Part shown: piece after piece, positions 15,601 to 56,783 of the stretch
How positions within the stretch are numbered: position 1 is the stretch's first letter
Layout of the letters: every line of letters starts with the position of its first letter
DNA from: Lytechinus pictus
Taxonomy: Eukaryota
Length of the DNA: 64,000 bases
Assembly: GCF_037042905.1 (NCBI RefSeq)
Contig: NC_087245.1
Span: forward strand, 12,836,001 to 12,900,000
Direction of reading: 5' to 3'
Translations under genes and position numbers: made by a program
The notes under the pieces: generated by a model
The model's input: only the letters and a program-made list of their open reading frames with translations
What the model was told of the DNA's origin: nothing
The model's database searches: none

Positions 15601-18600
15601 TTGAGGCCTGGATATGCTTGTACAAGTAAATTATGGGTAGTCTTGGAGGTAAATCACTAAATGCAAGAACCTTAAACAAAAACATTTTCCTGTGACTGAG
15701 TAATGACTTATGTTTATAACATGTTGCTACAGTTATCGATTACATGTATGTTACATGTATGTTACATGTATGTTACATGTATGTTACATGTATGCTCCAC
15801 AAACATTTAGAAGATGAGTCATGCAAACATCATAAAACCACAAATGGATATCTTGGGGTATTTAATGTTTACAATTCAAGGCTAAAATAATACTAAATAT
15901 TTGTGGTGGAGAAAGCTCAGGAAAGAGATTATGATGAAGTGTTTTCACATCTCACCAATTAGAAAAATACATGTAGTATGATGAGAAATAGTTAAGGCTT
16001 CAAAATGTACTTGTACCTGATGTCTTATATTCATAGTTTCACACTTGCTTGAACCAGACGAGTTCTCCTAGGAATTAGCCTGCAACAAGACTTAGACATT
16101 TCTTGTCTCATCAGTTCATATTCAAAATTTGCTACAGCACTTGGAGAAATCTCTCATTTTGGGGTAGGCCTATTTTCTTTCGAGTATAGTGAGAACTTTG
16201 AATTCATACCAGAAAAATGCCTCAGGGTATATTCATATCGGGTCGAATCCACAATTTATAAGAAACCACATATTTTTTCCTGATTTGGCGGATGTAAAAA
16301 AAAAAACCCTTTATATAACATGTAATGTATCGCAGTGGGGTGAAATTAGAAGTAGACATGTTGGAATTCACAGCAAATTCCTATGAGAAACATATTTTTC
16401 AAAATGTGCACATCCCAAATTTTTTATGTTAAGTTTGTTTCAGGCCTAAAGCAGTGCAAACATAGCCTCAAATGCCTACATGTATATATGCAACAAATTC
16501 AGAGAAGATAAACTTACCAGTAAATGTTCTTGACTGCAGATCAACACATCTTCGTCATCGTTTGAATTCTCATCAATATTCTGATTTAAGAAAAAAAAAA
16601 GGATTTGCAGCAACATATACATGTAAATATATATACAAAAGTAAATCCTGCAAATGTGCATTAAATTGAGCAGTTCCAAAACTATGGATTAAATTACCCA
16701 CAAAACTAGAAAGGCAAAGTTATAAAGACTTCAGGCCCTATATCTCTTCAAATGGTTGATTATTCTTGATAAAGAATGTCTTATGTTTCTAGCAATGTTA
16801 GGAATGGGAACTCTGTTTACATCGCAGCACAGCAATATAGACCTGTAGTCCTGTACATTCATGTAGTAGGCATAGCTATCCCATAATGAATAATTTCAAA
16901 TTATTATTAACACTTCAAATAAAACATAATAAAATAAAAATATATATATATTTAAAAAACAGAATGACTGAGGATGGACTGGTATTGAAATTATTCTATA
17001 TGTACATAGAAATATGAAAGCTTTATACAGTTTGATATTGGTATACATCCTTAGATGTAGGCCTACTGTACATGGTAAATTTTTGTTATTGAGTGCCGTG
17101 TTTCCTGACCTTTATTTTTTCTCACGAAATGAAATGACCTGACCGATGTCCATATCTGAAGTCTGCTATTAAATGGATCTGATAAACTTGTGACTCAAAT
17201 TCTTCTTAATTGTGCTTTGTTTGTTTAATGCAGAAAAATAGGGGCATTCTGAACTATAAAGTAAACATGAATGCCTGATTGCCATAGTGCAAGATGTACT
17301 GTAGGCATACATGTATATATATACTTGTGAAGATGTACAAAATAAATGAGTCACAAATAAAATATGGGTTTAAACTTAAAAGGGGTACCCATCGCTGAAA
17401 ATAATATGATTTTACAATCAACTATAATTCAACTAAAGCTTCTTTGGGCTACATGCACATGTAGGCCAACATCCATGATTCACGTAGAGGTGGGATTGAA
17501 GAAATTCACAAAAGAAGGGAAAGACAGGGTTTGGATTTTGATGTTTTATAGTAATCAAGAGGCACGCTTTAGTATAATACTGTGCAAGAACCACTGTACT
17601 GAAACTCAACAGGACAAAAACATGGCCTTCATATGCTTTTATCTTGGCTAAAGTTGGTTTAACGTTATAAATGTAGGGGTAAATTGTCAATTGGTCTTCT
17701 GCCAACTCGTCCACTCCCCACATGGTCTACCTTCATACATGTACCTAGTCTAATGCCATTCCGTCTATCAACACCATTTGGTCCAATCATCACTTTGTCT
17801 AATCACCAGTTCGTTTATGACCATTTCATCTTGTAATTAGTTGGTCTAATAGTAATATCCATTTTAGTTTCATTCATTTCGCCCAATTTTATTACATTCA
17901 TTTCGCCCAATTAACACTTAGTCCAATTAGACCACATGGTATGGACTTACAAATCAAATAATTAAAATTCAAATAACTTTTTTATTCTTTGATGGGATTT
18001 TCTCAAACCTTCTGCAATATTTTTATCAGCTATTTTTAAAATAACTTTTTGTCAGGCTGAACTTCCTCTTTAAAAAGACAATATCATAATTTTTCATTTT
18101 GAAGCCAAAACACTGAATTTAGCTCATTACAAAGAACCTTTCCTGATAAATTATTTTGGATTTTCAGCTGGGTTATCACTTAAAATATAATCCTACATGA
18201 ACATACTGTACATCCCTTAATACTAATTTTGAATTTGGAAGTGTCCCTGAAAAACAAATTTCCAAATATATTCTAAGATACAGAACACATGAATTTTCAG
18301 GCAACTAATTAAAATGTGATATATTTTTTATACTCTACTTGGTATATTTGTAGCTTGGCCCCACATGTATATTCCCATGATGTACTGTAGTATGGTAATG
18401 ATTGATGCACCCAAGGAGCTGATCAATGCACCTGTACTGTACACTGTAAACGTGTAGAGTGTAGACTACATACATGTACATTATCAATATGGCCACAATA
18501 TTGCTGTTATCTCTAGAAACAGAATCATCCAATAACTGGAAAGAGAACAAACTCTGACACTTGGCAACACATCAATATAAAAACTGAAATTTCACACAGC

Positions 18601-21600: not shown

Positions 21601-24600
21601 AGGGGTCTACATTTGTAAATCTGTGTACCAGTACAATATACATTTTTAATCTCCATATTATTGATGCAATGCACAATGAATTAATGTACCATGCATTAAC
21701 TGGGTTGTGGAGGCAATGGATGCATACATACACTGTAGTACACATATTAAAAGCATCTATATTAATCCAAAGAAATTGCATAAACTCACACTATATACAT
21801 GTACATGTAGTAAAAAATCCACATCAGAGAGTAAGTTTACATTACATACAATACATGCAGGGAATATTTAGTGAGATTCCTTGTACTGTACAAAAATATC
21901 TACTTGTTGCACATACATTTTTGATATATCCCATCAGGGATAGGACTCACACAGCATAAATAAACTCAGTATTGTAAAACCACAGTACTTCAATTCCTCT
22001 CTCAAATGCACATGAATATCATAATAAAAAATTTTTTTTTTCAAATGCAATGGCATTTTTTTGGCTGGGACTTGATCAACAGGACTCCAATTCAATTACA
22101 GGAGTGAGAAGCCGCTTATTATATCAGCACTTTGCTTCGGGCTCTGTCACGCTACATGTACAGTAGGGCACAGATATCCAAAGCATCCAGGCACCAACCA
22201 AAGCAATTCAGATTCAGGACCTTTGTTCATAAAAGTTGGGAATAAATTAATTCCTCTACAGGAAAGTGTAGGGAGGCAAGGGGGAGAATTGGGTGTTGAG
22301 ACATTCTAACGGCTAAAACAAACACAATGTATGTACACTGTACACAAATAAATGCAGATCATTATTGATTTGTAGTACAAGTAAAATCAGCTTATTTTTC
22401 AGATAGGCCTACATGTACATGTAATACAATTCAATTTATAGCAAAGTTGAATTCGCAAATCACTCTCCTCTACATGTACTAGGCTCCAAAGTATTTAAAA
22501 AAATATGAAAACTAACAATTGAGACCCCCATGTCTGTACACCTACATGTACAAGTGGACTGAAGATCCATGAAAAATTCATTCAATTGATATATTGTTTC
22601 TTAAACTTGTATGCCCCCCAAAGAAAATCCATCCAAATAGAAACAATTCTTTTTTATGAAAAGCTACAGCCTTGTCATTTAAAAAAAAATGGTGCTCCAT
22701 GTCTGCACACCCATTCATTACACATTGCTGACCAACACATTGCCAACATTAAACATTAATTTCTAGTATGGTACCTCCTGGTATCTTTTCTATTTATTTT
22801 CTTTGAGGCCGTTCTCATTACGCTTTCTAAAACTAGTTTACTGGAAACCGATTCAGGAAACCAGTTTGGAAGATCGCTTTGCTAGCGTTCCCACTTGATC
22901 ACACGAAAGTGGTTTTCAAAATCACTTCACGTAAAGCGCTCTTGTTGCTATGGAAATGCTCTCATAGGGTTGACATGTTTCGCGCGAAATTCGAAACCGC
23001 AGCATAGGCATTCTACACCTGTCTTGTGGAGTAGCGCGCTCAAAATGTGCGAAGATCGCTTCCCGAAGAACGGTTGTGTCCTCACTTACGCTAAAACCAG
23101 TTTAACGAGGCAAAGCGATCTTGAAAACTACATCGCGAGGTGGTTTTCCAAACTGGTTTGGAAGATCGCTTCCAAGACCGCTTCAACCGTTCTCACTACG
23201 CGTTAAACTAGTTTCCACTAAACTAGTTTCCAGTAAACTAGTTTTAGGAACGTAGTGAGAACAGCCTCTTTCAATGAGATGAATCTGATCTGTTTTGTAA
23301 TTTGTACAATATTAAACTTCTACAAATTCTTACGAAAAAAAATATGGAGCAAATTTCAAAATAGGCCTTGATTTGAAAATTTTGAATTTTAATATACATT
23401 GTAAGACCTGAGAGACAAATCAAATATTGCATGAGAGTAAACCAAAAAAAATGCTTTAAATAGTGTTTAGGGGATACTGGAAAATATTTTTGAGCTTTCA
23501 TTTTCTGTTCATATCATAAAAGGTTCAAGTGCTGCAAAGGACTGCTCCTCAGATACTTTCACTTTTATTTCAAGCTTTTGACCCAAGACAGCTGATAATT
23601 TTCATGACAAACATTTGTGTGAACTGTGAAGTAATACAGTTGAACTGTGTTCAGTGTGTAGTGGTTTTCTTTTCATCAAACACTGATTTCAACATGATCA
23701 GAGCTTGATCACTTTATTTTACATTGATCATGCAAAGACAGCTGATTTACAACTTAATTATTTCTTTTCATGGAGCACCTCTCAGTTAGACTATTCAACT
23801 TGATTCTCCTGTCTATCTCTAAGCGGATGTTTTTCTCACTTAGCAACGACTAGCCAATCAGATTTAAGCTGAGAGCAACCTCATGGTTAATTTTTACACT
23901 CCAACACACGCGGTAGAAAGTCTTCACCTAGTAAGGACATGTACAATTTCTGCTAGTCACTTTTCTTTGCAACACAACAAATAGCTCTTACTTTGGGATT
24001 TATTTTTCATCATCAGGATTTCAAGTTCTTCATTTTCCATCCTTTTGATTTTGGACATATGTAAATATATACTCATCGCTTGTGTTATCCAAGTGGACAG
24101 CGTGTAATATTTCTAGGAGAACATCTCGTGTCACGATCACCCTATTCGCGACGCGTTTCGCTGAGGCCTCACGTGCGCGGTCGTTCTTCATCGCGACATT
24201 GTTCTTCATTCGCATTTATCTTGTTTATGGACATCGCATTAAAGGATCCCGATGAATTACTCGCCACTAGATTTTCTACATTTTTGCCTTCGCATATTGG
24301 ACCTCAGTGCTGGTGAGTCAATCAGATATTTTTATGTTAAGTAAGTTCTCATTTCTTACAATTGGTGACCCCGACGTGATTTTCGAGACGCAACAATTTT
24401 CATCATGAATCAACAATCAGCTAATCCAGCTGCTGCGGTATCGCATGTCGCTGCAGTCGCCTTAAAGCTTCCCCCATACTGGCCGAACGATCCCGCTGTA
24501 TGGTTCGCTCAAGTACAAGCCCAGTTCATGACGAGGGGAATTACTTCAGAGGAGACTCAGTTTGCGTACATTGTGTCTGCACTTCAACCTGAGATTGCAC

Positions 24601-27600
24601 AGGAAGTCAGGGATATTTTAATGAACCCTCCTAAGGACACACCGTACTCGCACCTCAAAGCAGAATTGATTCGCAGGACATCAGTCTCGGAGCAGAAAAG
24701 ACTCCACCAGCTACTTACCCAAGAGGAACTAGGGGATCGAAAACCCTCCCAGTTATTACGTAGAATGGAACAACTGCTTGGAAGTGATCATCTTGATGAA
24801 ACAATCTTCAAACAATTATTTTTGCAGCGACTTCCACATCATGTCCAGACAATTCTAGCGTCAAGCCGCGACGACATGAAGGTGACACAGTTGGCAGACT
24901 TGGCTGATAGAATCATTGATATTGGTTCAACAAGTACTGTTTCTGCTGTTAGTTCGCCCTCGTCTTCTACTTCTAGTTCAGAGTTGTCACAACTTCAACA
25001 GCAAGTAGACAGACTTACATTTCAAGTGCAGTCATTGACTACGCAACTTCAACATGAACGTGGTCGATCTCCAAATAGGCGCCCTCAACGTCCAAATACT
25101 CATTCAAATAGACAACGTAGCAGGAGTAGCAGTCAAAAGCGTCCTCTCTGTTGGTATCACTGGAAACATGGTGCAGAAGCTCGCAAGTGTACACCGCCAT
25201 GTAACTTTAATCACGCTTCTTTGTTTTCGAGTGATTCTCAACAGCCTTCTTCCAACACCCATGCTCAGGGAAACGACAGAGCCAGCCGGGATTAAGAGCG
25301 ACGACTCGTGCTGGTGCTAAGAATAAGAATGGTCGCTTGTTCTACATTCATGATCGGATCAGTGGTACTCAATTTTTGGTAGATACTGGAGCGGAAGTCA
25401 GCATAATCACGCCATCTGCAGTTGACAGACAACGGCATACACATTCAGAGTACACATTGGAAGCGGTTAACGAGTCTCGCATTCGTACGTATGGTGAACG
25501 CTCCATCACTTTGGATTTAGGCCTTCGAAGGACTTTTCGTTTTGTTTTCGTGATTGCCGATCTTCCTACACCCATTATTGGAGCCGATTTCCTGGATGAA
25601 TTTGGACTGGTTGTAGATGTTAGGCATCGAAAACTTATTGACTCCACTACAAAGCTCACGATCGACGGCATCCGTGCTCCACTTCACACGCAGTCTGTCA
25701 GTCCTATGTTTTCACGTTCATCGACTACAGGCAGTGATGAGTATAACGCCATCTTAAAGGAGTACCCAGACATCACTCGTCCTGACTATCGCCCCAAAGC
25801 TGTCAAACATTCTGTTACGCACCACATTGTAACGACAGGACCTCCATGTTCCGCACGTCCACGTCGTTTAGCTGCTGATCGCCTGACGATAGCACGTTCT
25901 GAGTTCGAACATATGCAGGAACTGGGGATCGTTAGACCGTCGAGTAGCAATTGGGCATCCCCGCTCCACATGGTTCCCAAATCTACACCAGGTGATTGGC
26001 GCCCATGTGGGGATTACCGTGCTCTTAACGCTCGAACTGTACCAGATCGCTACCCAGTCCCACATATCCAGGATTTTACAGCATCATTGAATGGCAAGGA
26101 GATCTTTTCGAAGATAGATCTCATCAAGGCATACCATCAGATACCCGTTGAACCATCTGATATACCGAAGACGGCAATTACCACACCCTTCGGACTCTTC
26201 GAGTTTACGCGAATGCCTTTCGGACTTCGAAATGCAGCCCAATCCTTCCAGCGTTTGATGGACGAAGTGGTCAGGGGCTTGCCTTTTGTCTTTGTGTACA
26301 TCGACGACATGCTAGTTGCTAGTGCAACAGAGGAAGAGCATAAGGAACATCTCCGACTTCTTTTTGCTCGCCTTCACGAGTATGGTATAGTGATCAACCC
26401 TGCCAAGTGTGTGTTTGGTGTGAGTTCTCTCATCTTCTTGGGACATCACATCAGCGCAGATGGCATTCGACCCCTCGAGAAGCGCGTGGAGGAGATCCGC
26501 GAATTTGCTCGTCCTTCTTCTATTCGACAGCTCCGTCGTTTTCTAGGACTTGTCAATTTTTATCGACGATTTATCCCCAAGGCAGCAGCTATCCTCGCAC
26601 CACTTACCGACATGCTCCGTGGTCAGCCGAAGAGATCAACCAAGGCAGTTGAGTGGACGGAAGAGCGCATCAGTGCATTTGAGCGTGCGAAGGAGGAACT
26701 TGCAAATGCTGCTTTGCTTGTACATCCTTCGACAGATCTCCAAACTAACTTGATGGTTGATGCATCAGATGTAGCAGTCGGTGGCGTCCTTCAACAGTAC
26801 GCTGATGGTATTTGGAAGCCAATTGCGTTCTTTTCACAGCGACTCAAACCTACCGAAATAAGATACAGCACTTTTGGTAGGGAATTATTAGCTATTTACC
26901 TCACGATTCGCCATTTTCGCTATTTCTTAGAGGGACGCGAGTTCACAGTCTACACAGATCATAAGCCATTGACCTACGCTTTGCGATCGAAGCCTGACCG
27001 TCACTCTCCAAGAGAAATCCGCCAGCTAGACTATATCTCGCAGTTTACATCAGACATACAGCATGTACACGGTGTAGACAACACAGTAGCTGATGCCTTG
27101 TCTCGACTGCACGTGGATGCTCTCCACACATCATTTACTGTTGATTTTGATCAGATTGCAGCCGACCAAATTGATGATGAATGGGAAGAGATACAGAAAT
27201 CAACTTCACTGACATTTAAGCAAGTACCACGGCCTTCAAGCGACGGAATGATTTGGTGCGATGTCTCTACAGACCACGAGAGACCTTACGTCCCGAAGAA
27301 ACACCGCCGCATGGTATTTGAAGCGTTGCATAATATGTCACATCCTGGTGTACGCTCTACCCAAGCAATGATTACTTCACGTTTTGTTTGGCCAAGTATG
27401 AACAAGGACATACGTACGTGGGCTCGTTCATGCTTATCTTGCCAGCGCTCTAAGGTCCATCGACATATCAAGGCACCACTTGGAACCTACACTGCGCCAG
27501 ACGCCAGATTCAGTCATATTCATGTAGACTTAGTCGGTCCATTGCCTTCGTCAAATGGATATTGTTACATGTTAACCTGTATTGATCGGTTTACAAGATG

Positions 27601-30600
27601 GGCCGATGCTTTCCCAATATCAGACATTACAGCAGAGACTGTCGCCAAGACACTTGTGCATGGGTGGATTTCCCGATTTGGCGCACCCTCAACCATCACC
27701 ACGGACAGAGGTAGGCAGTTTGAATCGCAACTCTTCCAAGCACTCACTTCACTTCTTGGGAGCTCTCGTACACGCACCACTGCGTATCACCCTGCGGCCA
27801 ATGGTATTGTGGAGAGATTCCATCGTCAGCTCAAAGCAGCACTTCGAGCGCAATCTGATCCCAGCAAATGGCAAGAGTTTTTGCCTATCGCACTTTTGGG
27901 CATACGCACAACGGTAAAAGAGGATCTTGGATGTACACCAGCAGAACTGGTGTATGGAACTACACTGAAGGTTCCAGGTCAGCTGGTGGCACCAACGACT
28001 CCGGACTCTTTCTCCAACCCAGGCGACTATGTTCATCGCCTTCGCAACTATATGATTGACATCAACCCTGCACGAACACGTTCTCAAACTACTACATCGC
28101 ATGTTCCACCTGATTTGCAAGATTGCTCGCATGTATTTATCAGGTGTGATGCTGTCCGGCCATCACTTCAGCCGCAATATGATGGACCTTACAGAGTTGT
28201 TAGTAGGACGCCAAAGTTTTTCATTTTGGATGTGAAAGGGAAGAATGATTCCGTCAGCGTTGATCGTCTCAAGGTTGCTCATCTGCCATCTACTACAAGC
28301 ATGGACAATTCAATTCAACATCATGCATCATTTTCATCGCTACCTACTCCTACTGCCTCTACTCCACCGGTGCGGACAACCAGATCAGGTCGCCGCGTCC
28401 ATTTTCCAGCTCGTTTTGCCCAGTTTTCCAATGGATGAAAGGACATCTTACATTATCATGGGACCAATGCTTTGTATCGATCAACTTAACTCTTGTTCGT
28501 TGATCTAGGAGGGGAGTATTGTAGTGGTTTTCTTTTCATCAAACACTGATTTCAACATGATCAGAGCTTGATCACTTTATTTTACATTGATCATGCAAAG
28601 ACAGCTGATTTACAACTTAATTATTTCTTTTCATGGAGCACCTCTCAGTTAGACTATTCAACTTGATTCTCCTGTCTATCTCTAAGCGGATGTTTTTCTC
28701 ACTTAGCAACGACTAGCCAATCAGATTTAAGCTGAGAGCAACCTCATGGTTAATTTTTACACTCCAACACACGCGGTAGAAAGTCTTCACCTAGTAAGGA
28801 CATGTACAATTTCTGCTAGTCACTTTTCTTTGCAACACAACAAATAGCTCTTACTTTGGGATTTATTTTTCATCATCAGGATTTCAAGTTCTTCATTTTC
28901 CATCCTTTTGATTTTGGACATATGTAAATATATACTCATCGCTTGTGTTATCCAAGTGGACAGCGTGTAATATTTCTAGGAGAACATCTCGTGTCACGAT
29001 CACCCTATTCGCGACGCGTTTCGCTGAGGCCTCACGTGCGCGGTCGTTCTTCATCGCGACATTGTTCTTCATTCGCATTTATCTTGTTTATGGACATCGC
29101 ATTAAAGGATCCCGATGAATTACTCGCCACTAGATTTTCTACATTTTTGCCTTCGCATATTGGACCTCAGTGCTGGTGAGTCAATCAGATATTTTTATGT
29201 TAAGTAAGTTCTCATTTCTTACAAGTGCAAGAGACTTTGAGTAGATTTACATACACATGTATCAACAATTGGGACTCCCCATTCTTACACAATACTCAGA
29301 TTATTTGGTGCCTTAACTAACATTTATCACTCACTATCACATTGCATTGGGTAATTTCTTCCATTAGTCAATCTACTGACTGTAAATGAATTTATTTTTA
29401 AAGATTACATGTAGTACCACCATCCATACAAGTCATGTCTAATTAAATATTTACATGTATCTACATTTTTCATATAAACTGAAATGAGGAAATGCAAGCA
29501 AATGGATTGTACATTGGTAAATATAAACACTGAGCAGAGCCTTTAAAACTCATGGACAATTATGAAATACAAGTAGCAATGATAAGTACATATCCCAATC
29601 AGGCTGATGAAAATGTTGGAGTCAGGGGCAATTTTAGTCAATTCTTTTCAAAGCACTTCAGCTTGTGCATTCAAACGTCAAGAATAAAAATTAGTAATAG
29701 GAGAATGTTGAAATTAAGTAATTATATAGAGGGAACATCATTCTTTTATTAACCGGGATTAACAGATTTTGTTTGCAATTGAAATAAGGATAAATATGAT
29801 GTAGAACTGAAAATCTACATGTATCCTGGCAGAGCTTGACAGGATTAATGACAGCAACAGTAAAGCAATTACAATGTACTACAAAGCTGTATAATTACTC
29901 ATCAGGGCCCGTATTCCATAAACGAGATAAGCATGCTTAAGTCAAAAATCTAAGCATTTTGTCTTATTTTCTGTCTAAGACAAAATTCTTAGCCAAAACG
30001 CGTATTCCATAAAGAATTGGCTAAGAATTTTGTCTTAGAATTTGGCTAAGAGGTTTTGCGCGACTAAGACAGATATAGGATGAATGGCTAAGTAACTTTT
30101 CTTAAAACTGCAGAGTCTGTATTTCATAAATACAACATGGCTAAGAATTTAGCCCTAACTTTAAGACAGGTGTGAGTTGTCTTAATTGCTTTAAGACAAC
30201 CTGGTTTAAATCCAACAAATCATGGCCAATTTTTTTTTAGAATTTATACCTATATTGCATTTCGAGCTACTTCCTCAGTTTTTTAACCGATTTTCATGAA
30301 ATTTGGAACACACATTGGTCTTAAAGTAAGGAGGTGTGAGAAATTTTTTTTTTGCTTTTTCAGAAATTGTGTTGCCATGGTAACAGTATATTATGGCCAA
30401 AATTTAAAATTTAAATTACTTCATCAGTTTTCTACCAATTCTCATGAAAGTTGGCTCACACATTGGATTTGAGGAAAAGATGTGCAAGACACAATTTTGC
30501 ATGTGTTGGAAATTGTGTTGCCATGGTAACAGTATATTATGGCAAAAATTATGTATAAATCTTGCTATTCCAACTACTTCCTCAGTTTTTAACAAATTCT

Positions 30601-33600
30601 CATGAAATGTGGCACAAACATTAGTCTTGATGTGAAGATGGGCAAAACATATTTTATGCCTATATAAAAAAAATGCGTTGCCATGGTAACAACATATTAA
30701 ATAACGAAAATTAGGTGAAAAATTTGTGGTTTTAACTAGTTTATAATATTTCAACCACTTCTCATGATGTTTGCCACAAACATAAGTCTTGAGGTAAAGA
30801 TGTGCAAGACACATTTTCGCATGTGTCGGAAATTGTGTTGCCATGGTAACGGTATATTAGGGCAAAAATTATGTAAAAATCTTGCAGTTCCAACGACTTC
30901 TTCAGTTTTTAATCAATTCTCATGAAATGTGGCACAAACGTTAGTCTTGATTTGAAGATGTGCAAAGTATATTTTATGCCTTTATAAAAAATTGCGTTGC
31001 CATGGCAACAAATAAAATAACAAAAATTAGATGAAAATCTTGTGATTTGAATTACTTTATCAGTTTTCAACTGGTCAATTCTCCTAAAATGTTGGCGCAC
31101 ACAATAGTCTTGAGTTGAAGATGTCTAAGATATACTTTTGCCTGTATCAGATTCGGGTTGCTATGGTAACATATTATATAACGAAAATAAGGTGAAAATC
31201 TTGTAGTTCGAACTCCTTCATCTTTTTTCAACCAATGCTCATGAAATTTGGCACACACAATAGTCTTGAGTTGAAGATGTGCAAGACTATTTTTGTCTGT
31301 ATCAGAAATCGTGTTGCCAAGGTAACAACATATTATATAAAGAAATTAGGTGAAAATCTTGTGGTTTGAATCCCTTTATCAGTTTTACCAATTCTTATAA
31401 AAGTTGGCTCACAAATTGATTTTGAGGTGTAGATCTGCAAGACATATATTGGAAAATGTGTTGCCATAATAACAGCATATCAGATCAATAAATGTGTAAA
31501 CAGCATGATGTGTATTGAACTACTTCTTCATTTTATGACATTGGCCTATATGTCCATGAAATGTAGGTTTTGAGCTAAAATAATCTGCAAGACACATTTT
31601 CTCATTCATCAAAATATGTGTTTGTATGATAACTACATGTATACGCCAAAAAAAGATTAAGACAATGGTCAATGCTAACTTTTGTTTGGCTACATAGTCA
31701 TAGAGAACTACATGTAGCTGAGGGCTTAGTTCTAGTTTTTTTTTTTTTTTTTTTTTTTTTGGGGGGGGGGGGGGCTAGACCTCAAGATTTCGAACTACAG
31801 CCCCTAGTTTAGATCTAAGCCTAGATCAAGATCCTTTAGTCCTAGAAATAATCCAATGCTAGATCCCTAGCCTACTTCCTTTCTCAGGCCTAACGTTAAA
31901 TGAGTAGAACTAGACTAGATCTAGCCTACATTTACTATTTTTAGATCTAGAATCTACATTGAGATAGAGTCTACAAGTCTCTAGATCTAGACCTATTACT
32001 ATGACCCTATGTACACCTAGATTTGTATAGTTCTAGATCTAGATAGGGTCTAATTTTAGTCTAAGTGAGTAAGTCATTTAGTCTAGATCTAGGCCTAGGT
32101 TAGAGATTTCTAGATCAAACAGTAGACTAGATCAGCCAGTCCTAACGTTAGGGCTACCGGATAGGCTAGAAATAGAATCTAGAATGAATAGAAGAAAGCA
32201 CAGGCTAGGCCGCCTAGGCCCTAGATCTAAATTCTTATATAAATCTAGGCCCTAGGCCTAGTCTAGACTGAGCTGTTGCCAGTGTTGGTCTAGGTTTAGG
32301 CCTGTTTTCTAGTCCTGGAAACCTAGATCTAAACAAGTCCTCAAAATGTATAAAATAAAAACTCCAAACAAACAGATGGACCTAAAAAAAGCAAGAGTAG
32401 ATCTAGATAGATGTCTTACTGCGGCAGCCTGAACACGTACTGTGTCTAAAGACGTCGTGTCGAGGTCCCCGGGGCAAGATAGATCAGATGTCTAGACTAC
32501 TACTAGGACTAGATCTAACTTTAGGCATAGTTGGCAAGCAATGCGTAGCGATAGATCTAGCACTGTTGACAGGAATAACCGTCGTTTCTGGGGATTTATT
32601 TAAAAGTTTCTGACATTTACTGTCATATCACATTGGTGAGACTAGGCCAACGTAACGTTAGATTGTTTACAGTTTAGTGTCGTACTCGTAATATAGCGGA
32701 ACAACCAAAATACAGTCGGAGACTGAAGCTTTTGGTCTAAGTCAGATCTATTCTAGACCTACATGTAGATCTAGATAGATCTATCCCTGTCTTAAGGCTA
32801 AGCCAGGCTAAGTCCTGCATGTTCTAGGCCTAGACCAATACTAATATAGGTCTATCGTTAGATCTAGGCCTACGTAGCTTCAGTCTCAGTTGCTCCACTA
32901 CGGCACTGGACTAACAAAGTTACGTTTTGCTTCAGCCTTCAGGAAAGTAAAAAGTAAAAACAATGTTCAATTCTCCTCCAAACAGACGGATATTAGTTGT
33001 AGATCTTGGGCCTAGGCTAGATCTAGGCCTAATGTTAGACCCAAGACTAGTCTCAAAAGTTACAAATGTTTTCCCTTAGACCCTAGATCTACTTCAGTGA
33101 AGTAGAATAAAGATGTCGAGAGGAATCTATTCCATTTAGATTTTGACAAACAATACATGAAAAGTAATGAATGGGACTGATACATAAAAAACTGTGCAAG
33201 TCACTCGGTTTGGGATTGAAATGTTTTGGTAATTAAAAATATATAGATAATCTGAATAAAAAATTCTTACCATATATGGGTGATGAATGCTCTTCTTCTA
33301 CTACAATAGTTGTAATTAGTTTCAATAAAATCAAACTTGTTAAGAAAAAACAACTTCAATGACATTTTTGCTATTTTGTTGCAGTCACCCCTGCAGCAGT
33401 TTAGAAGGTCATAGAATTTGACTTTGAGACTTTGGCTTAGCCATATCGTCTGACTTGAGACAAATGTCTTAAAGTTTATAGAATATCCTTAGGGAAGATT
33501 TCTTAGACAAGCAAAATGCTAAGACAAATTGCTAAGACTTAAGCAAAAAGCTTATCTTGTTTATGGAATACGGGCCCAGGTCCTAGAACTCTACTGGATA

Positions 33601-34085
33601 AGGGCACGGTTTCAGCAGCAAAACTTAAAATTGATAACATATAAGAACTGCCAAGAATCATGTTCAACCAGACCTCCTTTGAGTTTGATCAATATAAAAA
33701 GACAGTGTGTACAGGCTCAAGCAACTCTTGCGACAAACCACTCTCACACCTCAATGCAGGTCTAAAAAAGCTACAGTAAATGTAGGCCCCATTTATTTTT
33801 GTTGCCAATCATTTAACATATTTTTTTTAAACTGATGCTTTAAAATTAACCATTGTGCGGAATCACATACATGTACAACATGGGAACAAGTTTGTTTGGG
33901 CATAAAGGTAAAAAGAATAGAACACACTCTGATTATACTGCAGCTACATGTACATACTGTCTGATTTATTTAGAGCTTACCTGAGTTATCTCTGATGAAA
34001 CGACCCAGATGACATCCACTACAAGGAGTAAGAGGATACCAACAGCCATTCTCTTAGGTCTGGTTAGTCCACTGGTAAGACTCAT
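614..34085 (-). CDS. SLC35F5: Solute carrier family 35 member F5 (DMT-superfamily transporter), 13 coding exons, 489 aa
   Basis: Hand-spliced GT-AG exons with consistent phases: 34085-33981, 21446-21300, 16580-16518, 11031-10944, 10297-10241, 9560-9427, 8330-8249, 6478-6391, 5647-5481, 4473-4314, 2026-1936, 1416-1220, 704-614 (1470 nt including TGA). Peptides such as [69 protein letters not shown] and [30 protein letters not shown] match SLC35F5 as I recall it. Confidence 0.95.
3547..4143. mobile_element. Non-autonomous TIR element (CCC...GGG termini, CMC/EnSpm-like MITE)
   Basis: TIR CCCG(G)nCACTTACATTGACGAGTGGATACCATGC versus GCATGGTATCCACTCGTCAATGGAAGTGG(C)nTGGG, inserted in an (AC)n tract. 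Confidence 0.75.
6953..7928. mobile_element. Non-autonomous Tc1/mariner-type element
   Basis: About 36-bp TIR (CAGTGCGTATCAAA...AAGTTTACACTT) at both ends with TA TSD; no transposase. Confidence 0.88.
11420..11850. mobile_element. Partial TTAA-type (Kolobok-like) non-autonomous element
   Basis: Ends GGACTTGACCT-TTAA; internal segments resemble 61514-62128 (TGTCTGATTTTTCT, ATAACTTT...ATT). Confidence 0.5.
11900..12366. mobile_element. PIF/Harbinger-like MITE
   Basis: TIR GGTGGTTTCAGACCGCCTCGA / TCGAGGCGGTTTGAAACCACC; flanks AAA and TAA. Confidence 0.75.
15741..15794. repeat. 11-bp tandem repeat (TACATGTATGT) x about 5
   Basis: Directly visible. Confidence 0.9.
20398..21271. mobile_element. 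PIF/Harbinger-like MITE
   Basis: TIR GG..GTGTTTATGCTTCCA at both ends, TTA TSD, internal subterminal inverted repeats. Confidence 0.82.
22805..23268. mobile_element. MITE with about 44-bp TIRs (Harbinger-like)
   Basis: GAGGCCGTTCTCATTACGCTTTCTAAAACTAGTTTACTGGAAAC versus its near reverse complement at 23225-23268. Confidence 0.8.
23657..24360 (+). repeat. 5' LTR (704 bp)
   Basis: TGTAGTGG...CTTACA; direct repeat of 28520-29223 at offset 4863, the same offset as the duplicated ORFs in the ORF track. Confidence 0.96.
24363..24382 (+). promoter_or_regulatory. Primer binding site complementary to the tRNA-Trp 3' end
   Basis: TGGTGACCCCGACGTGATTT starts 2 nt after the LTR and is the reverse complement of the metazoan tRNA-Trp 3' end (...AAATCACGTCGGGGTCACCA). 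Confidence 0.92.
24405..25295 (+). CDS. gag: Retrotransposon Gag (296 aa)
   Basis: [21 protein letters not shown] capsid-like motif; C-terminal C-X2-H-X9-C-X3-C ([18 protein letters not shown]) knuckle typical of CsRn1-clade elements. Confidence 0.93.
25268..25338 (+). promoter_or_regulatory. -1 programmed ribosomal frameshift signal (slippery heptamer plus predicted H-type pseudoknot)
   Basis: G GGA AAC in the gag frame at 25268-25274, then a 6-nt spacer. Stem 1 pairs 25281-25290 with 25305-25315; stem 2 pairs GAGCGAC 25296-25302 with GTCGCTT 25332-25338. Pol is in the -1 frame and open across the site. Confidence 0.85.
25337..28438 (+). CDS. pol: Retrotransposon Pol (protease, RT, RNase H, integrase), probably expressed as a Gag-Pol frameshift fusion from about 25274
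   Basis: FLVDTGA protease; MPFGL and YIDD RT; VDAS RNase H; HHCC zinc finger; D-D-E integrase (HVD, TDRG, VER); GPY motif. No internal stops. Confidence 0.96.
28507..28516 (+). promoter_or_regulatory. Polypurine tract
   Basis: AGGAGGGGAG ending 3 nt before the 3' LTR. Confidence 0.85.
28520..29223 (+). repeat. 3' LTR (704 bp)
   Basis: Identical by eye to the 5' LTR; followed by the AGTG TSD. Confidence 0.96.
29906..33576. mobile_element. 3.7-kb non-autonomous TIR element (Harbinger-like, CAG TSD) carrying a 160-bp tandem array and a CTAG-rich block
   Basis: TIR GGCCCGTATTCCATAAAC / GTTTATGGAATACGGGCC, CAG on both sides, subterminal CTAAG/CTTAG repeats, no transposase ORF. Confidence 0.82.
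30280..31600. repeat. Tandem array of about 160-bp units, each with a GTTGCCATGGTAAC-type palindrome
   Basis: Motif starts at 30371, 30517, 30677, 30837, 30996, 31157, 31313 and 31460. Confidence 0.88.
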
Positions 34086-34353
34086 CTTGAAGTCAGTCTT
34101 AGTAGTTGGTGAATGGCAAACAACCCCACACTCTACTAACCATGCAGTGATGATGGGAAATATGAAAGGTAAGAGCTGCCTTCAATCCAAAACTTGAACT
34201 TAAAGCTACAACAAACATCTACCACGGCAAACCACATTCCATGTAAATGGTTACTGTCCTGTTGCTACCTTGGCCTAGGTCTGTTGAAAAACAAAAATGT
34301 TGGTACAGATGAATTGTGATTTTAAAAATAATCATTGTGACCCTAAATCTCAT

Positions 34354-34516
34354 CAGGGGCTTGTTTCATAAAGGACTTACAACTGTTGTAGCTTTGCCAT
34401 TATGGCAACTACCATGGTAACAGGGCTCATCAGCCAATCAGAATCAAGGTTTCCATGTTAGTTGCCAAAATGGCAAAGTTACAACAGTTGTAAGTCCTTT
34501 ATGAAACGGGCCCCTG
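34354..34516. mobile_element. Small palindromic MITE
   Basis: GTTTCATAAAGGACTTACAACTGTTGTA ... TACAACAGTTGTAAGTCCTTTATGAAAC inverted arms. Confidence 0.75.
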
Positions 34517-35418
34517 ATCTTGGTCACTTCCACATGAGCCAAGTTACGGTTATTCAAAATTTCAACTCACAAGAAAAATACATATTTTCATGTAGGGCCT
34601 ACATGTACATGCATAAAAGTTTTTAAAAGCAAAATACCTCTGGGTCCCTTTTATCTTTGTCTTGTGGCCAAAATTCTAATCAAATGGTCAATATGCCTAC
34701 ATAAACACAATTTGAAATTTATTTATGTCCTTATCTTATATGGATAATGAGATACATTGATGTGTGAAATGATGACCTATGTTACCTTTAAGTTTTGACC
34801 TCATAACCCCAAAAGTTAGTCAGATCATCATTGCCACCCACATGTATACATGCAATGCCAACACTTGACAAAATGAGTAGTGGACAATTTACAATCTACA
34901 AAAATGTAGACCAAAAGCTTTGGTCTTATTCACTGTGCTGTTCTGCTGAACTATGTTGGCTACCTGTGTCTGGAGAGAATAGTCAAATGCCAGAAATTAT
35001 TTAATAAATTCCTAGAAAAGACAGTTATTTTTGTCTAAGGACAACCCAGCATTCCATGATTAAAAATTTGGACACAGAAATTCTGGTTGTCATTTTTTTC
35101 TTCAAATGTCAAGGAAAGAAAGAATGTCAATTATCAAGTTACAGGTAAATGTGCATATGTTAGTTTTTAAACTTTTAATAATAGTCCTATTTATTGTGAA
35201 ATGGCAAGCAGTCAGTCCCATCAGCATTTAAGTTGTTGAGCGGAACAAGTGATGGCCAGTCAGAGTCGAGAATGAAGCTTGTAAAACTAACCTTTTTAAG
35301 AGTGCTTTATCCTAGACTGAAATATCAGCTGTTTTGGAGGAGTTTTTGAAATATTTTCAGATTTTTCTCAGTTCTCCTACACAAATGGAAGCCTCCCATA
35401 GCCTAGGACTTGTAATGG

Positions 35419-35807: not shown

Positions 35808-36165
35808 TAATGGCGGTGATTTGCGTCTATGGGGAAAAGAGTGGGCTCACTGGGCTGCCTTACTCCACTTTTTATGGGGTGAAACAAAGCTTGTGAGTTG
35901 TGAATGAAAAGTACTAATAACTTCTTATGGATTATTTCTCACCAGTTTCTCAAAATATGTGATGTAAAATACAAAATTTTGACTCCAAACAGACAGGGTT
36001 CATGTGTTACTATCATTGCATGTCTACCACCACCAAAGTGGTGCGTATGGGATACTTCTGTCCAAGCAAAAAAAACTTGGGGGGGGGGGCTACTGTTCAC
36101 AACTTACTGCCTAAATCTGCAACATTGGGCAAGCTTTAACACTGCAATGAATGGGGATTTCCAGT

Positions 36166-36533
36166 TTGTTTCATAAAGCTGTTCGTAAGTTAAGAATGCC
36201 TTTAAGAACGACTGGTGACCCTTTCTTACGCGCTTAACCATCGCCAATGAATATACCATTTACCAAAAGAAAGGATCATCAGTCGTTCATAAAGTTGCTC
36301 TTAACTTACGAACAGCTTTATAAAACACCCACTTGGGCTCCTTTTTTTTTAGTTTCCAGGGGGCAGTTTCATATTCAGCTGTTCGTAAGTTAAAAGCGAC
36401 TTTAAGAACGACTGGTGATCCTTTCTTGTGCACTAAATCATCGCCAATGAATATATCATTTACCATAAGAAAGGATCACCAGTCATTCTTAAAGTCGCTC
36501 TTAACTTACGAAAAGCTTTATGAAATGCCCACC
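36166..36533. mobile_element. Two adjacent copies of an about 165-bp palindromic MITE
   Basis: TTTCATAAAGCTGTTCGTAAGTTAAG...CTTAACTTACGAACAGCTTTAT; further copies at 56618-56783 and, partially, 63033-63105. Confidence 0.82.
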
Positions 36534-36677
36534 AGGGCTCTTTTTAAGATCATTTCATGAGCTATACTTGCCCCAAGCCCCTGTGTAATTTTTTTAAACA
36601 TTATATCTAGATTTATTTAATATTAGATTTGTCCCTTATTAGAATCTGAACTTGCAGTCTTTTAACTTTGAGATCTT

Positions 36678-38060: not shown

Positions 38061-39142
38061 ATCTGCTTAATCAAATATATTTGAATTTCCAATTTCTATT
38101 GCAAGTTTATTTAGAATGCCCCTTTCATATTACTGTTCAGCACCGAGGTTTTAATTTTTTACTATGTTATATTTCTACAATTTTGCAGTGATATATTTTT
38201 TTTCTAATGCATCTCAAGACTATCTAATTAATTATCTTGGCACCCTTTTCAGGATTCTGTGTCTCACGATAGACCTTCATCCATATAATCAAGGTAGGCC
38301 TAAGTGCATTATTTATATTTCCCCCTTTTATTTGGAGTGCTATTGCGACCCCTTCCTACCCCATTTTGGAGAGCATATTTCCGCGAAGTATTACACGGAC
38401 GAGTCCTGGGCTCCGGCCCGCGAAGCTCCCTAGGTTAGTGACAGTGTAGCCTAGGCCTAAGTAAAGAAAGGCCAGGAGTCAGACTCAGGAGAGCTCGACA
38501 CGCAACAGGACTGAACTAAAAACAAAATCTGAAAATGTTCAAATATATTGTGGATCTTTCAGTTTCACTATATATTGCCTGATTCAAACAATGATCACTC
38601 ACTGAGTGTCACTTTACTAACACAACAGTAAGTAAGTAACAGTAATACTTAATGTAGAAGCGGGAATGGTAAGCCATTCCAGCCAGCTGCTCCGTTTTGG
38701 TGTTTTTTACTTAAACTTGGCTCGGCAAGCTGGCGCTAAATAACTAACAGAATACCCAGTTGTTGTGTGTCCGGACGATCAATTTTAGAAAGTCATTTGG
38801 AAAAATTTACAAGCGAAGTTTCAGCAATTTTTAGTACAAAATGTTAGGAAATATTCTTTAAAAAAAATAGAAGATGACTACAAAGATTGAATTCATATTC
38901 TTACTGTAAACCAAAGACAAAAAAGAAGGCTTCAAAAATATAAAGTGTCCGGACACCCGACCCCCATCCTACAGTCAGCTTCAGTGGCACAGCTCAAACT
39001 GAAAAGGGCCTAGGGAGGAGTGGCACTCACATCATTGAAATAGCACGCATACGGTACCGTACGGTATCACACATTCACACCACACAGAGCTGCAGAGTAA
39101 CAAAACCAACATGTTTTGCAAAGGTATAATGTCTTAACTTAC

Positions 39143-39310
39143 CCAATCTTTAACAATTGTATCACATGTAAACAAGAGAAACGACAAACTAATCCATCAA
39201 TAGACGAGAAAACGTAATTTTTACGATTCAACTACGCCTACGGTACTGGCAGTCTTGATCTTCTAAACTATCATGACTATCTTCTACCCAATTTCAGATC
39301 GGATTGCGCT
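39143..39310 (-). other. SLC35F5: Probable non-coding first (5'UTR) exon of SLC35F5
   Basis: Consensus donor GG|GTAAGT at 39143/39142 in a CpG-richer, promoter-like region. The ATG-containing exon begins at an acceptor at 34280, so an upstream exon is required. The 5' boundary is approximate. Confidence 0.5.
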
Positions 39311-39401
39311 AGCTAGCGCCTGCATATAACCGGTACGCGGTTAATCCGATCCGAGATCACTGAACGAGATGAACAATTACAAGTTTCATCCTGGCTTGAT
39401 G

Positions 39402-43200: not shown

Positions 43201-46200
43201 CTGTTAAAATATCTCGTTATGCTTAAAGATAAAACACAAAGAAAAACAATTAGCACACAAATCGCAGACACTGTACGAAAGTGTGTTCTCAAAACATAAA
43301 TCCATTCTAAACTTATTTTCGAGGTTTAAACATTCATTGAAACGTTATACATCTGCTGTTTCGTCACTCTCATATTTAATTTGGCTTAATGTTAAATTTA
43401 CTGCAGCCGGATCAGAACAAGATACGGTCAATATGTCGGGCAATCTCGACAGAATGTAACTACACCAGGGTAGACTTCAATGTCCGTGATAACGGAACGA
43501 CTGAGTTCTTTGTCAGGGGAGCCGACGATAAGATGGAGCTTGCTCTTAGGTTAATACATCTGAGACTAAAAGGAAGAGTGAGTATTAAAAGACTGCCAAT
43601 CGTGTTTCCATGGAAATTATTTTGATAAAGAATTTTAAGCAATTGTGTCTATCATCCAGAAGTAGAATAGAGATTTATGACCCATTGATTTAACATAACT
43701 GATATGTAAATTACTCTCAGTGTTTTACTATTGTAAAATAATTGTCCCTGGACCGAAATAAGGAATTTGATGGGACATGAATTTGCCGATCTCCGGGCCT
43801 ATATTTTGATGTTTTTTAAACTTCACTCTAAAAATATATTGGGTAAAAATGCTTCATGAGGGTAATTATGTGTCCAACCAACATTGGACATTTCTTTTGG
43901 GCATTTTTATTTATCCATTTTAATGAATATTTTGCCCATTCTAAAGTAATTGCTGCTTATTTTTTTTAACCTTACTGGACAATATGCTTCCCGCATTGGG
44001 TAAAACACTGCCCCAAATTGGTTGGACACATAATTAACCTCGTGCTGGTTAAAATTTTACCCAATGTGTTTTACAGTGTTGTATCAGTTTTAAAGAAGAC
44101 TGAAAATACAATGTCTAGTGGTTAAAATAAACATGTCCATAGCTTTGAATATCAAGAGACAACACTGGGGAACTATTTCATGAAAGCTGTCAGCACCATA
44201 AAATCCAACAATCAGTGCAGTACTTCGATTAGATACAATCATGTGCTCCTTCCTCTTCAGCCAATCACAACCATAAGTTGCCAATCGAAAAAAATGTTGG
44301 GGGAAATGCTCCCAAAGCTTATTAAAAAATTCCCTTGTTTCCATGTTCAAGAAATTATATATAGGCGAACGGATGAATTGAAGTTTGTCTTAGTTTCAAA
44401 ATGAGTAAATATATTATCTGGCAGGATGGCGGACAGCCCCCTCCCGAGGTAGTACCATTAACTGTAGAGAATATCAGGAGACACAACAGGAATCTAACAG
44501 AAAGAAGACAGTTCGTATGTGGAGCTTGCCCGAAGATTTGGTTTAAAAAAGTGTTCAGCTACAAACCTGTTTCACGGTAAGAAATAATCGTCTTTGTTCA
44601 ATATAATACGGCATAATTTCCAAATACGCTAAATTCAAATTAGTACTTTTAATTATAGGGCAAAAAGCAGGCCCCTATATAGATTAGAACTTGTACGAAA
44701 TATCGGATCAGGGGGAGGGGGATAGATGGGGGTCCACCCCTGGATTACACGACAATTAATGAATGTGGTGATTATGGGGGAACAAAGAAGTGCCCCGGAT
44801 TGTAGTTAACCTTTTGATAATTTTCTCTCTCTCTCTCTTTGTTTTTTTTTGCTTGTCAATGATTGAATGAAAAATGTAATTTTGAAATATGTTATTGCCT
44901 GTCATTTTTTTTTAGATTTAAGTAATTTCTAGCCCTATTTTTTTCTCAAAAAGTCAAATTGCATCAAACGATTCTCTGCCCCAATCTTCCCAATCAATAA
45001 TTATAATTATTAACTTGGGGTAAGGGTTCATATTAGACTTAATAATGAACATTTTCTACATTCTAGTTGCCATTATTTGATTGGGATCATTTATCAGTAG
45101 GTCCCAATTAGTTTGTCAGAGCCTTGTCGATGCATATGAATATTTTGCATAGCGAACGTATCCACCTTGTTAGGTGCTCAAGGCGCTCCTATATTCTAGT
45201 CTACCGATTCCGGTGCTCACAGTTCACAGCTTTTTGAGGAATTACTTCATACCGGTAATCTTTTACCTTACCTGGGTTGAGTGCAGCACAATGTTGGTAG
45301 ATTGCTTGCTCATATTACCACATTTACCAAGCATTATCTATTTTTTTTCAGGTGTGCTCAATGTCATGTCCGTTATGATCCTATTCCTCGTGGTAGTGAA
45401 TTTGGACATGGTTACTACAGGTGTGGACATTGTGGAAATGAATTTACAGGACGGGCTACTGCAGGAGTTCCAGCACCTTGTTTCGTTTGTGGAAGAATGG
45501 TAAGATATTTTAATAACCAAACACTTTTACGAAGATACGTTGCTAGCACTGTCATTTCGGCGAAACTGACCCCCCGACCAATCAAATATAATTATTGGGG
45601 CTTTTCCTGTAGCATAACAGTGAAATGATTGTAATCTTTGTATCCTGCTTTCATCCGGGGTTTTAATCAATACCTTCTCTTTTCGCTTTTCATCAAAATG
45701 TACACCTGCTCTTCAAACGAAAGTAAATCAAACAATGACGAAAAGGAGAATATCGCGGCAACACCAGAAAAGGACATGGCCGTACGCAGACGTGTTTTCG
45801 GGGGAGGGGGGGCCAAGACACCTACATTTTTAAAAACTAATCTTGAAAGTAAGGGAGCTAAGCGACCGAGATTTTCATGGGGGCATTTTTGCATTTGATA
45901 AAGAGAAATTAAAAAATGTAAGTTTTAAAATTTTCGGGGGGGGGGGACTTTCCCCTACACCCCCCCCCCCCTGCGCTGCGTACGGCCATGGAAATGATAT
46001 TGTTTATGTTTTTGCATTTTTCTTGATATCGGCAGTGTTTGCCCTTGAGAATCGGACCGAAGCCCGAGAGGAATCGACCGCAGGGTGGTGGTCGTCATGC
46101 CTGTGAGATGTGTGATAACGGTAGGATCCGACCATGTCCATCTTTCAATCAATTCCCTGTCGTGAGCCAGCGCCATGAAAGCACCGGGTCAACAGTATCT

Positions 46201-50850: not shown

Positions 50851-51933
50851 CAGTCAGTCCGCAAGCCCTGAAAAAGTAGCTCCTTTTATCCAAGTGATAT
50901 TCATGACTAGAGGGTTTTTGCATAGTTAATGAGCTTGGTGCGAACCAAAACACCTCTTTTTATTCGGCCATTGCTGCTCTAAATATTGACAAAATTTCAT
51001 GTTTTTTGGTATCTTTGTAAAGAAGAAGAATCATTCTTTTAGGTCATGTGTTTGGATTTTTAAAAGAGTGTTGTAATATAGGAAAAACTTTTGATCTAAA
51101 ACATGAAACAAAATATTTTTTTTATGCAACAAAAGTTGTTGTTTTCACACTTAATTTCTGTTTGGGCACAAATGATTTTTAGATCATGATAAAGCTGAAG
51201 ATCTAAGCTTTAATATGATATAATTTTTATAAGAAGATGTATTTTAGATGGGTCAGCAGCCAGCTTTTCATAGGCCAAGTACATTTTGCAGCTCAAAAAC
51301 AAGAATACTGCGCTCTGATTGGTCATAGAGACCAGTAGACAACACACCCACGCAAATTCCAATGTTCCCCTCACTGGGCCTCTGCAAGGTCACACTCACC
51401 ATGTGGTAATCTCTTCAAAATACCCGCGCCTGTTTGTTTTGAAAACAGTATTCAGCCAATCAGAACTCTGGATTTTATGTTACTCAGAAATTTCAGAAAT
51501 CTCGTCTTGCATCTTGATGGACAAAGCTGGCTGCTGACCCATCTAAAAGATGCCACATATCAAGAGTGACATTGTAAGAAAGTATAGAGTTTGAGCTTTC
51601 TGATGATATAAATAATGTTGGTGCCTAAAACACAAAATGTTGCACAATTTGCAAGTGAAAACAGAGGAAGAAAATTCTGTTTGATGCATCTTTTCAGGTA
51701 AAAAATTCACTTATTTATCAAAATATTTCATTCAAAAGAAATGACTAATATAAAAGAGTAACATTTACTCTTGCCCATGGTACAAAAATAATCAATATTA
51801 CGCAAGGAGAAAGTGGTTAAATTCTTTGAGAAAGAAAGTCTCACAATTCACGAGGGACATGAATTCAGCCACGAGAGGACTTGGATAAATCTCGCTCATT
51901 TGCTCATTAACACAGGGGCTTGCGGACTGACTG
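50851..51933. mobile_element. Non-autonomous Tc1/mariner-like element
   Basis: TIR CAGTCAGTCCGCAAGCCC / GGGCTTGCGGACTGACTG with TA on the right; internal inverted repeat 51242-51268 / 51523-51548. Confidence 0.78.
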
Positions 51934-56617: not shown

Positions 56618-56783
56618 GTGGGTGTTTCATAAAGCTGTTCGTAAGTAAAGAGCGACTTTAAGAACGACTGGTGATCCTTTTTTCTTATGGTAGAACTCCA
56701 TTGGCGATGGTTTAGCGCGTAAGAAAGGTTCACCAGTCGTTCTTAAAATCGCTCTTAACTTAAGAACATCTTTATGAAATGGC
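56618..56783. mobile_element. Palindromic MITE (same family as 36166-36533)
   Basis: GTTTCATAAAGCTGTTCGTAAG...CTTAACTTAAGAACATCTTTATGAAA. Confidence 0.8.

Follow-up and report, generated by a model that had tools for sequence, protein, structure and literature searches.

The question raised by this locus is how a short stretch of Lytechinus pictus DNA came to hold a dense cluster of palindromes framed by TA, and whether that cluster was formed at the place where it now lies. We have analyzed it within a window of 64,000 nucleotides, which also holds the surrounding gene.

Palindrome content of the block

31776..33095, no strand: block rich in putative scars, with 25 perfect TA-NNNN-TA sites (16 GATC, 5 GGCC, 3 ACGT, 1 CATG)
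31776..33095, no strand: further units in the same block, namely TA-GAC/GTC-TA (6), TA-GGC/GCC-TA (4), TA-GACC/GGTC-TA (3) and decayed forms
31736..31775, no strand: run of T25 and then G15, at the left edge of the block

All 16 copies of TAGATCTA in the 64-kb window lie between positions 31770 and 33095, together with 5 of the 14 copies of TAGGCCTA, 3 of the 4 copies of TAACGTTA and 1 of the 46 copies of TACATGTA. In 1000 dinucleotide shuffles of the block the first three words had means of 0.14 (maximum 3), 0.08 (maximum 2) and 0.02 (maximum 1), respectively. The block also holds 48 of the 158 CTAG in the window, far above the shuffles (mean 16.8, maximum 29). The counts of 16, 5 and 3 and the abundant CTAG reported in an earlier, sequence-only reading of this DNA proved to be exact. 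Words with one mismatch are likewise in excess (10 versus 2.4 for the GATC word and 12 versus 1.4 for the GGCC word), which fits a long history of gain and decay.

The frame is as clear as the words. Between successive TA dinucleotides in the block, 50 of the 151 spacers are four bases long, where 12.6 were expected. The spacers enriched relative to shuffles (P 0.004 or less) are GATC (16), GAC/GTC (6), GGCC (5), GGC/GCC (4), GACC/GGTC (3) and ACGT (3); the two-base spacers GA/TC (TA-GA-TA) are not enriched in the block (3 versus 2.95). As had been claimed, the palindromes are not arranged in tandem: Tandem Repeats Finder returned no array in the block at score 40, no head-to-tail periodic unit of the simple or minisatellite type was found there, the spacings of TAGATCTA (10-214) are aperiodic, and the autocorrelation is raised at lag 6 only. 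Runs of T and G that resemble the one at the left edge also occur near 945-973 and 57947.

The claimed contrast between the GATC core of the block and the CATG core of the gene body was borne out, with 33 copies of TACATGTA and none of TAGATCTA in positions 1-24300. The block has 12 GATC scars per kb and the CATG field of the intron 1.4 CATG per kb, making the block about nine times denser. Both share the TA-NNNN-TA form and one proposed cause, but the block is mixed, dominated by GATC, and situated within a transposon family with comparable copies and with candidate makers nearby. Outside the element the CA..TG class shows the same pairing of four-base and three-base forms (CATG 43 versus 2.0, CAG/CTG 24 versus 6.6), and at 6953 and 46979 there are elements bounded by TA whose ends are CAG and CAC. 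The CATG field itself extends across the SLC35F5 gene body (positions 1-34600, 42 of the 46 window copies of TACATGTA) and includes a tandem of TACATGTA at 15740-15794, 11-base. The TA-flanked element at 46979-48045 has 28-bp perfect inverted repeats and a frame of 101 aa, which we take to resemble the end of a Tc1 transposase; a Pfam search gave no match for the frame at 47469-47774.

The host element

29906..33576, no strand: host element, a non-coding inverted-repeat transposon with 18-bp perfect ends, NuwaI/Harbinger-like, multi-copy
30250..31660, no strand: about nine diverged tandem units of 158 bp, the left cargo of the host element
33981..34085, minus strand: SLC35F5-like coding exon 1 (tblastn)
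21446-21300, minus strand: SLC35F5-like coding exon 2, frame 98% identical to the SLC35F5-like protein of Lytechinus variegatus

The block was said to lie within a 3.7-kb element with terminal inverted repeats, and this element is found as described at 29906-33576 (3.67 kb). Its 18-bp inverted repeat is perfect, its ends match at 26 of 28 positions, and CAG stands on both sides as a target duplication (29903-29905 and 33577-33579); a second site of the element in sequencing run X2 (see below) continues with CTG. From left to right it is composed of the 158-bp units, the T25G15 run, the block and an AT-rich tail. Each of the 158-bp units contains a near-perfect GTTGCCATGGTAAC palindrome, presumably akin to the RFX X-box.

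The frames lying wholly in 31776-33576 are all 73 aa or shorter, and the sole frame of at least 100 aa in the whole element falls in the tandem array. The NuwaI group of the PHIS superfamily (PIF/Harbinger, ISL2EU, Spy) is defined by CWG duplications (PMC4482050). With that description the host element shares the CWG target duplication, the inverted ends and the animal host; unlike it, no DDE transposase or Myb/SANT frame was found in the part of the element examined. On the CAG duplication and inverted ends we call the element NuwaI-like and a putative member of the group; it is non-autonomous and would work like NuwaI.

A comparison of the SLC35F5-like protein with the window by tblastn gave 13 exon matches on the minus strand with 87-100% identity. 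Since exons 1 and 2 flank it, the host element is intronic in this SLC35F5-like gene. The two exons themselves had no match in Pfam.

Copies of the element in public sequencing runs

Positions 31776-34300 of the window were compared with four (X1, X2, X14 and X23) of 24 listed public runs, and the block is present in all of them. The summed contig depth per bin wholly within the element is at least 480 in X1, against 13 in the flanking intron, and at least 560 in X14, against 22-32; such a depth is not a copy number, and we take it to mean that the element is present many times, probably some tens. At 33577 the depth drops in X1, X2 and X14, and one X2 contig exits the element exactly there into a different flank. 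One contig of organism C (X14) has 102 non-aligning letters and then continues into the flank at 33577, which fits an empty site in that organism. In X1 a contig begins exactly at the CAG (33577) and agrees with the window at all 434 letters, a pattern expected of a sample with both filled and empty alleles.

The close X2 contigs represent a copy at another site that is about 99% identical to the window. In this run (organism B) there is no depth over the flank or over the SLC35F5 exon, which may reflect low-coverage host DNA, filtering, or an element shared with another species. In X2, 14 of the 25 perfect palindromes lie in pieces with at most six gap letters and can be judged, whereas 10 belong to a piece whose 20 gap letters have no assigned position, and the last is uncovered. 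The near-identical copy keeps 12 of these 14. More specifically, 11 are in pieces with too few gaps for the loss of a unit and with no listed substitution, the palindrome at 32552 is substituted, and of the pair at 32222 and 32253 only one remains, the absent one apparently being 32253. Since 12 of the 14 are common to both copies, most of the putative scars arrived with the element. The host intron differs from this imported DNA in origin, and the GATC/CATG contrast between the two is a consequence. The idea of a hotspot formed at the present locus found no support: the block travels in many copies as cargo, and most of its palindromes recur in a near-identical copy elsewhere.

It is extremely improbable that the cluster arose in place in the intron or is an assembly artefact. 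Such an origin could be considered for the GGCC unit at 32253, which may be private to the window copy, and the compared range starts at 31776, to the right of the T25G15 run and the left cargo. For most sites, however, it is refuted by the presence of the block in four runs, by an X2 contig that follows 31834-32160 with two substitutions and one gap, and by the other X2 contig that leaves at 33577 into a different flank. Among the diverged copies (X2 record 23, X1 record 4) the right part of the element (33103-33476) is shared and the interior is different. A 24-base pattern from the block retrieved no stretches from metagenomes.

Presence and absence of single units

32324..32331, no strand: TAGATCTA, where diverged copies have one TA only (loose end at 32319 in X1, three contigs, agreement 0.99)
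32253..32260, no strand: TAGGCCTA, apparently absent (six letters) from a near-identical copy (X1 and X2)
32841..32874, no strand: 34-bp run of the TA-bounded units GGTC, TCGT, GATC and GGCC, absent in one copy of organism C (X14)
32409..32485, no strand: 77-bp piece, rich in CpG and bounded by direct repeats of 8 bp, which the common family form lacks

Variants were compared with the window by eye; the listing covers 12 of the 148 rows of indels and 24 of the 402 rows of loose ends. The proposed step from TA to TA-NNNN-TA is supported by these data, as plain TA stands in other copies at 32324 and 32253 and the 32841-32874 run is absent from another, though the direction of change is unpolarised. 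The plain-TA variants fit additions of six bases at TA; a loss between two TA would look alike. At 32253 the evidence consists of an X1 loose end before 32257 (one contig), which equals the window minus GGCCTA, and of X2 record 20, which has no substitutions and six gap letters of unplaced position over 32162-32312. The absence of the 34-bp run is seen as a joint of 32840 to 32875 with TA between (one contig, 21 letters on the short side), and that of the 77-bp piece as a joint of 32408 to 32486 in X1 (depth 450), X2 and X23 (four reads). Two further variants are ambiguous: the one at 32776 can also be a 10-base near-tandem duplication, and the one at 31916 a deletion of one base.

It had been suggested that each event creates a new TA target and that the process could therefore amplify itself. 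There are 11 adjacent scar pairs, where random order gives 9.3 (P=0.30). Adjacency thus does not demonstrate self-amplification, although the 34-bp run of units at 32841-32874 hints at it.

The variants also bear on the idea that the words are selected binding sites, either for a host factor or for a DNA-binding helper protein of the element itself. Harbinger elements have subterminal motifs that are bound by a helper protein, one 8-base word occurs in many exact copies within a mobile element, and TA stands on both sides of 16 of the 24 GATC in the block. Nevertheless, we consider this very unlikely, as several cores share one frame, copies without the sites exist, the words are internal rather than subterminal while the ends have CTAAG-type repeats of their own, and the perfect sites at 32552 and 33084 are substituted in the common form, about as expected by chance.

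The sequence-only reading had named three findings that would speak against it, and none was encountered: copies do vary in the presence of units, the block is no satellite, and it is no artefact. As a whole that interpretation is partly supported.

Candidate makers of the putative scars

32568..32737, no strand: MITE-A, a dispersed small element with GAC..GTC ends, short imperfect inverted repeats and TA outside; candidate maker
34909..35035, minus strand: second copy of MITE-A, outside the host element, with TA on both sides and sharing both ends
51247..51543, no strand: 297-bp element with 21-bp perfect inverted repeats, GAT..ATC ends and TA on both sides; second candidate maker

TA-bounded elements with GA..TC, GG..CC or AC..GT ends had been predicted. 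The first class is represented by two elements in the window, one of them inside the block; elements with GG..CC or AC..GT ends were not found in the 64-kb window.

The 170-bp MITE-A in the block is far more abundant than the block itself, with a peak bin of 12514 in X1 and 168518 in X14. Its left edge at 32568 is marked by loose ends of 330 reads in X23, 28 contigs in X1 and 69 contigs in X14, the consensuses of which all end in TA, and its right edge at 32739 by 243 reads and 49 contigs. TA is kept at both edges in the reads and in the second copy; the copy in the block has TT on its left. The ends are of the form GAC(A/C), and GAC and GACC match the GAC/GTC and GACC/GGTC units exactly. The inverted repeats of MITE-A comprise about 8 imperfect bases. 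No empty site of MITE-A was seen, nor any exact direct repeat of 3-10 bases flush with or outside the TA. Ends of the Academ, IS3EU or hAT type were considered for it and rejected, as neither copy has an exact longer target duplication. A search with the MITE-end pattern gave two metagenome stretches, both taken to be chance matches in unrelated sequence, and no viral stretches. When the 38 units in the block are collapsed, 1102 bases remain, and their sole match within the window is the second copy of MITE-A. For the 297-bp element (51247-51543) the complementarity extends three bases past the TA, which makes its boundary uncertain. Both candidates are non-coding, and no transposase for scar makers was found.

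The match of minor units to real element ends speaks against an explanation without any transposase, in which short words of a CTAG-rich DNA would be copied and inverted by slippage and error-prone end joining, to give degenerate simple sequence. In favor of it, CTAG-like sequence pervades the block (98 of 212 non-scar TA flanks have C before or G after), two variants (32776 and 32253) are duplications in near tandem, and the autocorrelation peaks at lag 6. Still, such a process is unlikely to account for the block, which has neither period nor array and in which one TA..TA frame is common to four unrelated cores, some minor units are those of element ends, and neither flank at 32324 contains the extra GATC.

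Two other proposals were set aside. A preference for C-TA-G targets (19 of 32 scar flanks versus about 15% outside the element) was dropped because the non-scar TA of the block show 46%. A single GACC/GGTC heteroduplex as the sole source of both GATC and GGCC was abandoned because outside the element GGCC occurs nine times and GATC never.

CpG content and the question of a former promoter

The earlier description of the block as CpG-containing unique sequence was correct as to the CpG. It was not as to uniqueness, for 14 of the 26 CpG lie within the dispersed 170-bp MITE-A and the 77-bp piece, with observed/expected ratios of 1.23 and 1.06. The backbone has ratios of 0.21 and 0.34 in its two long parts, where the intron elsewhere has 0.28-0.46, and 38500-39400, the presumed 5' region of the host gene, has 0.87. 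In the part of run X23 that was read (about 6%) there are no piles of RNA starts, the RNA depth outside MITE-A is low in both orientations, and no splice-type joint is present among the 15 of 28 rows listed. The suggestion that the block is a former promoter is therefore unsupported at present, given its CpG-poor backbone and the lack of start piles in X23.

A related provenance, compatible with scars, is that GA..TC elements hit the stretch because it had formerly served as a promoter or an open 5' region, taken from a gene or from an autonomous parent element. We regard it as a tentative possibility. No GATC scar occurs in the other 62.7 kb of the window despite the copy of MITE-A at 34.9 kb, which points to something special about the ancestral stretch. 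In addition, two copies of TAGGCCTA at 38295 and 38452 are near the presumed 5' end of the host gene, and CTAG-rich palindrome clusters are found close to gene starts in other invertebrates. Against it stand the RNA results of X23, the depth of the block in X1, which does not exceed that of the right part of the element, and the low CpG of the backbone; methylation after capture may, however, erase CpG, and a past promoter would be compatible with a CpG-poor backbone.

Probable inherited excision scars

We consider it probable that several TA-targeting transposons left the palindromes behind as scars when they excised, and that an ancestral host element accumulated them. A cut-and-paste element would insert at TA and duplicate it; on excision, staggered cuts would leave a few terminal bases of the element on the broken ends, and end joining would then produce TA-(2-4 bases)-TA. 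Elements with GA..TC ends would thus give GATC, GAC/GTC and GACC/GGTC, while GGCC, GGC/GCC and ACGT would stem from hypothetical elements ending in GG..CC and AC..GT. The three-base forms fit a footprint of a single end; the GATC core needs bases from both ends of the element. For the 297-bp element, of which one copy with an uncertain boundary is available, two three-base GAT overhangs pairing via AT could yield TAGATCTA. The excess of the words, the many copies, the sharing between them, the plain-TA variants and the TA-bounded GA..TC elements are observed, whereas excision itself, the direction of change, the assignment of elements to scars and the chemistry of joining are inferred; all three states (TA, element and scar) were seen together at no single site. 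The ancestral copy would have gathered dozens of scars over a long period, after which a recent burst may have spread the host element to tens of sites, including the SLC35F5-like intron, with its copies still gaining or losing single scars.

Footprints of Tc1/mariner elements keep 2-4 terminal bases from one end of the element, framed by TA, such as TACAGTA/TACTGTA for Sleeping Beauty (PMC6943129) and TACATA/TATGTA for Tc1 of C. elegans (PMC12632400). The block resembles them in its additions of a few bases framed by TA (25 perfect sites), in three-base forms that equal the end bases of the TA-bounded MITE-A, and in the existence of plain-TA variants. It differs in candidate ends of GA..TC instead of CA..TG, and in a dominant form with a palindromic four-base core, unlike the scars given for Tc1 (PMC12632400) and Sleeping Beauty (PMC6943129). 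The canonical single-end two- or three-base form does not dominate in the block, which has 16 GATC versus 6 GAC/GTC and 3 GA/TC. Moreover, several scar classes are mixed in it and carried as cargo within another transposon. The block would work like Tc1/mariner excision footprints and is a putative member of that class, with a main form that is non-canonical.

If the words are scars, elements that have since departed contributed about one sixth of the stretch (38 units with 218 of its 1320 bases). Excisions normally leave no countable record, and the paralogous copies would then be a built-in comparison for the order and rate of such events. New here are the GATC scar class, its candidate makers and the variation from copy to copy. 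In a literature search that covered few of the subscription journals, no report of genome-wide fixed TA-NNNN-TA scars was found among the papers listed, which does not establish their absence from print. The two candidate makers with GA..TC ends make the scar explanation of the TA-NNNN-TA excess in marine invertebrates directly testable. The case also carries a warning, as palindrome clusters may be imported cargo and need not describe the resident gene.

A wider generalization can be put forward only speculatively. TA-targeting classes with GA..TC, GG..CC and AC..GT ends might leave uniform palindromic scars and sort by chromatin, with CA..TG scars in gene bodies and the others in open 5' DNA. 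An element that captured an open patch would then turn its copies into a time series of scar gain, exposing the traffic of insertion and excision together with an undescribed group of GA..TC TA-targeting transposases.

Other features of the window

An Rfam search gave five matches up to E 1, all far under the gathering score. The intron that holds the host element also contains two long overlapping frames of 308 and 1067 aa at 24369-28438 (CpG observed/expected 0.91), which resemble the gag and pol of an intact Gypsy-type retrotransposon. A small foldback element with 52-base arms at 34353-34517 apparently lies between CAG and CTG, in the same CTCAT context as the host element. An inverted-repeat element family is present at 36165-36545 and 56630-56774, with two copies head to tail at 36177-36545. 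Finally, the frames at 45281-45628 and 62256-62642 match Pfam UPF0515 (E 3.6e-13) and, below the cut-off, the Death domain.
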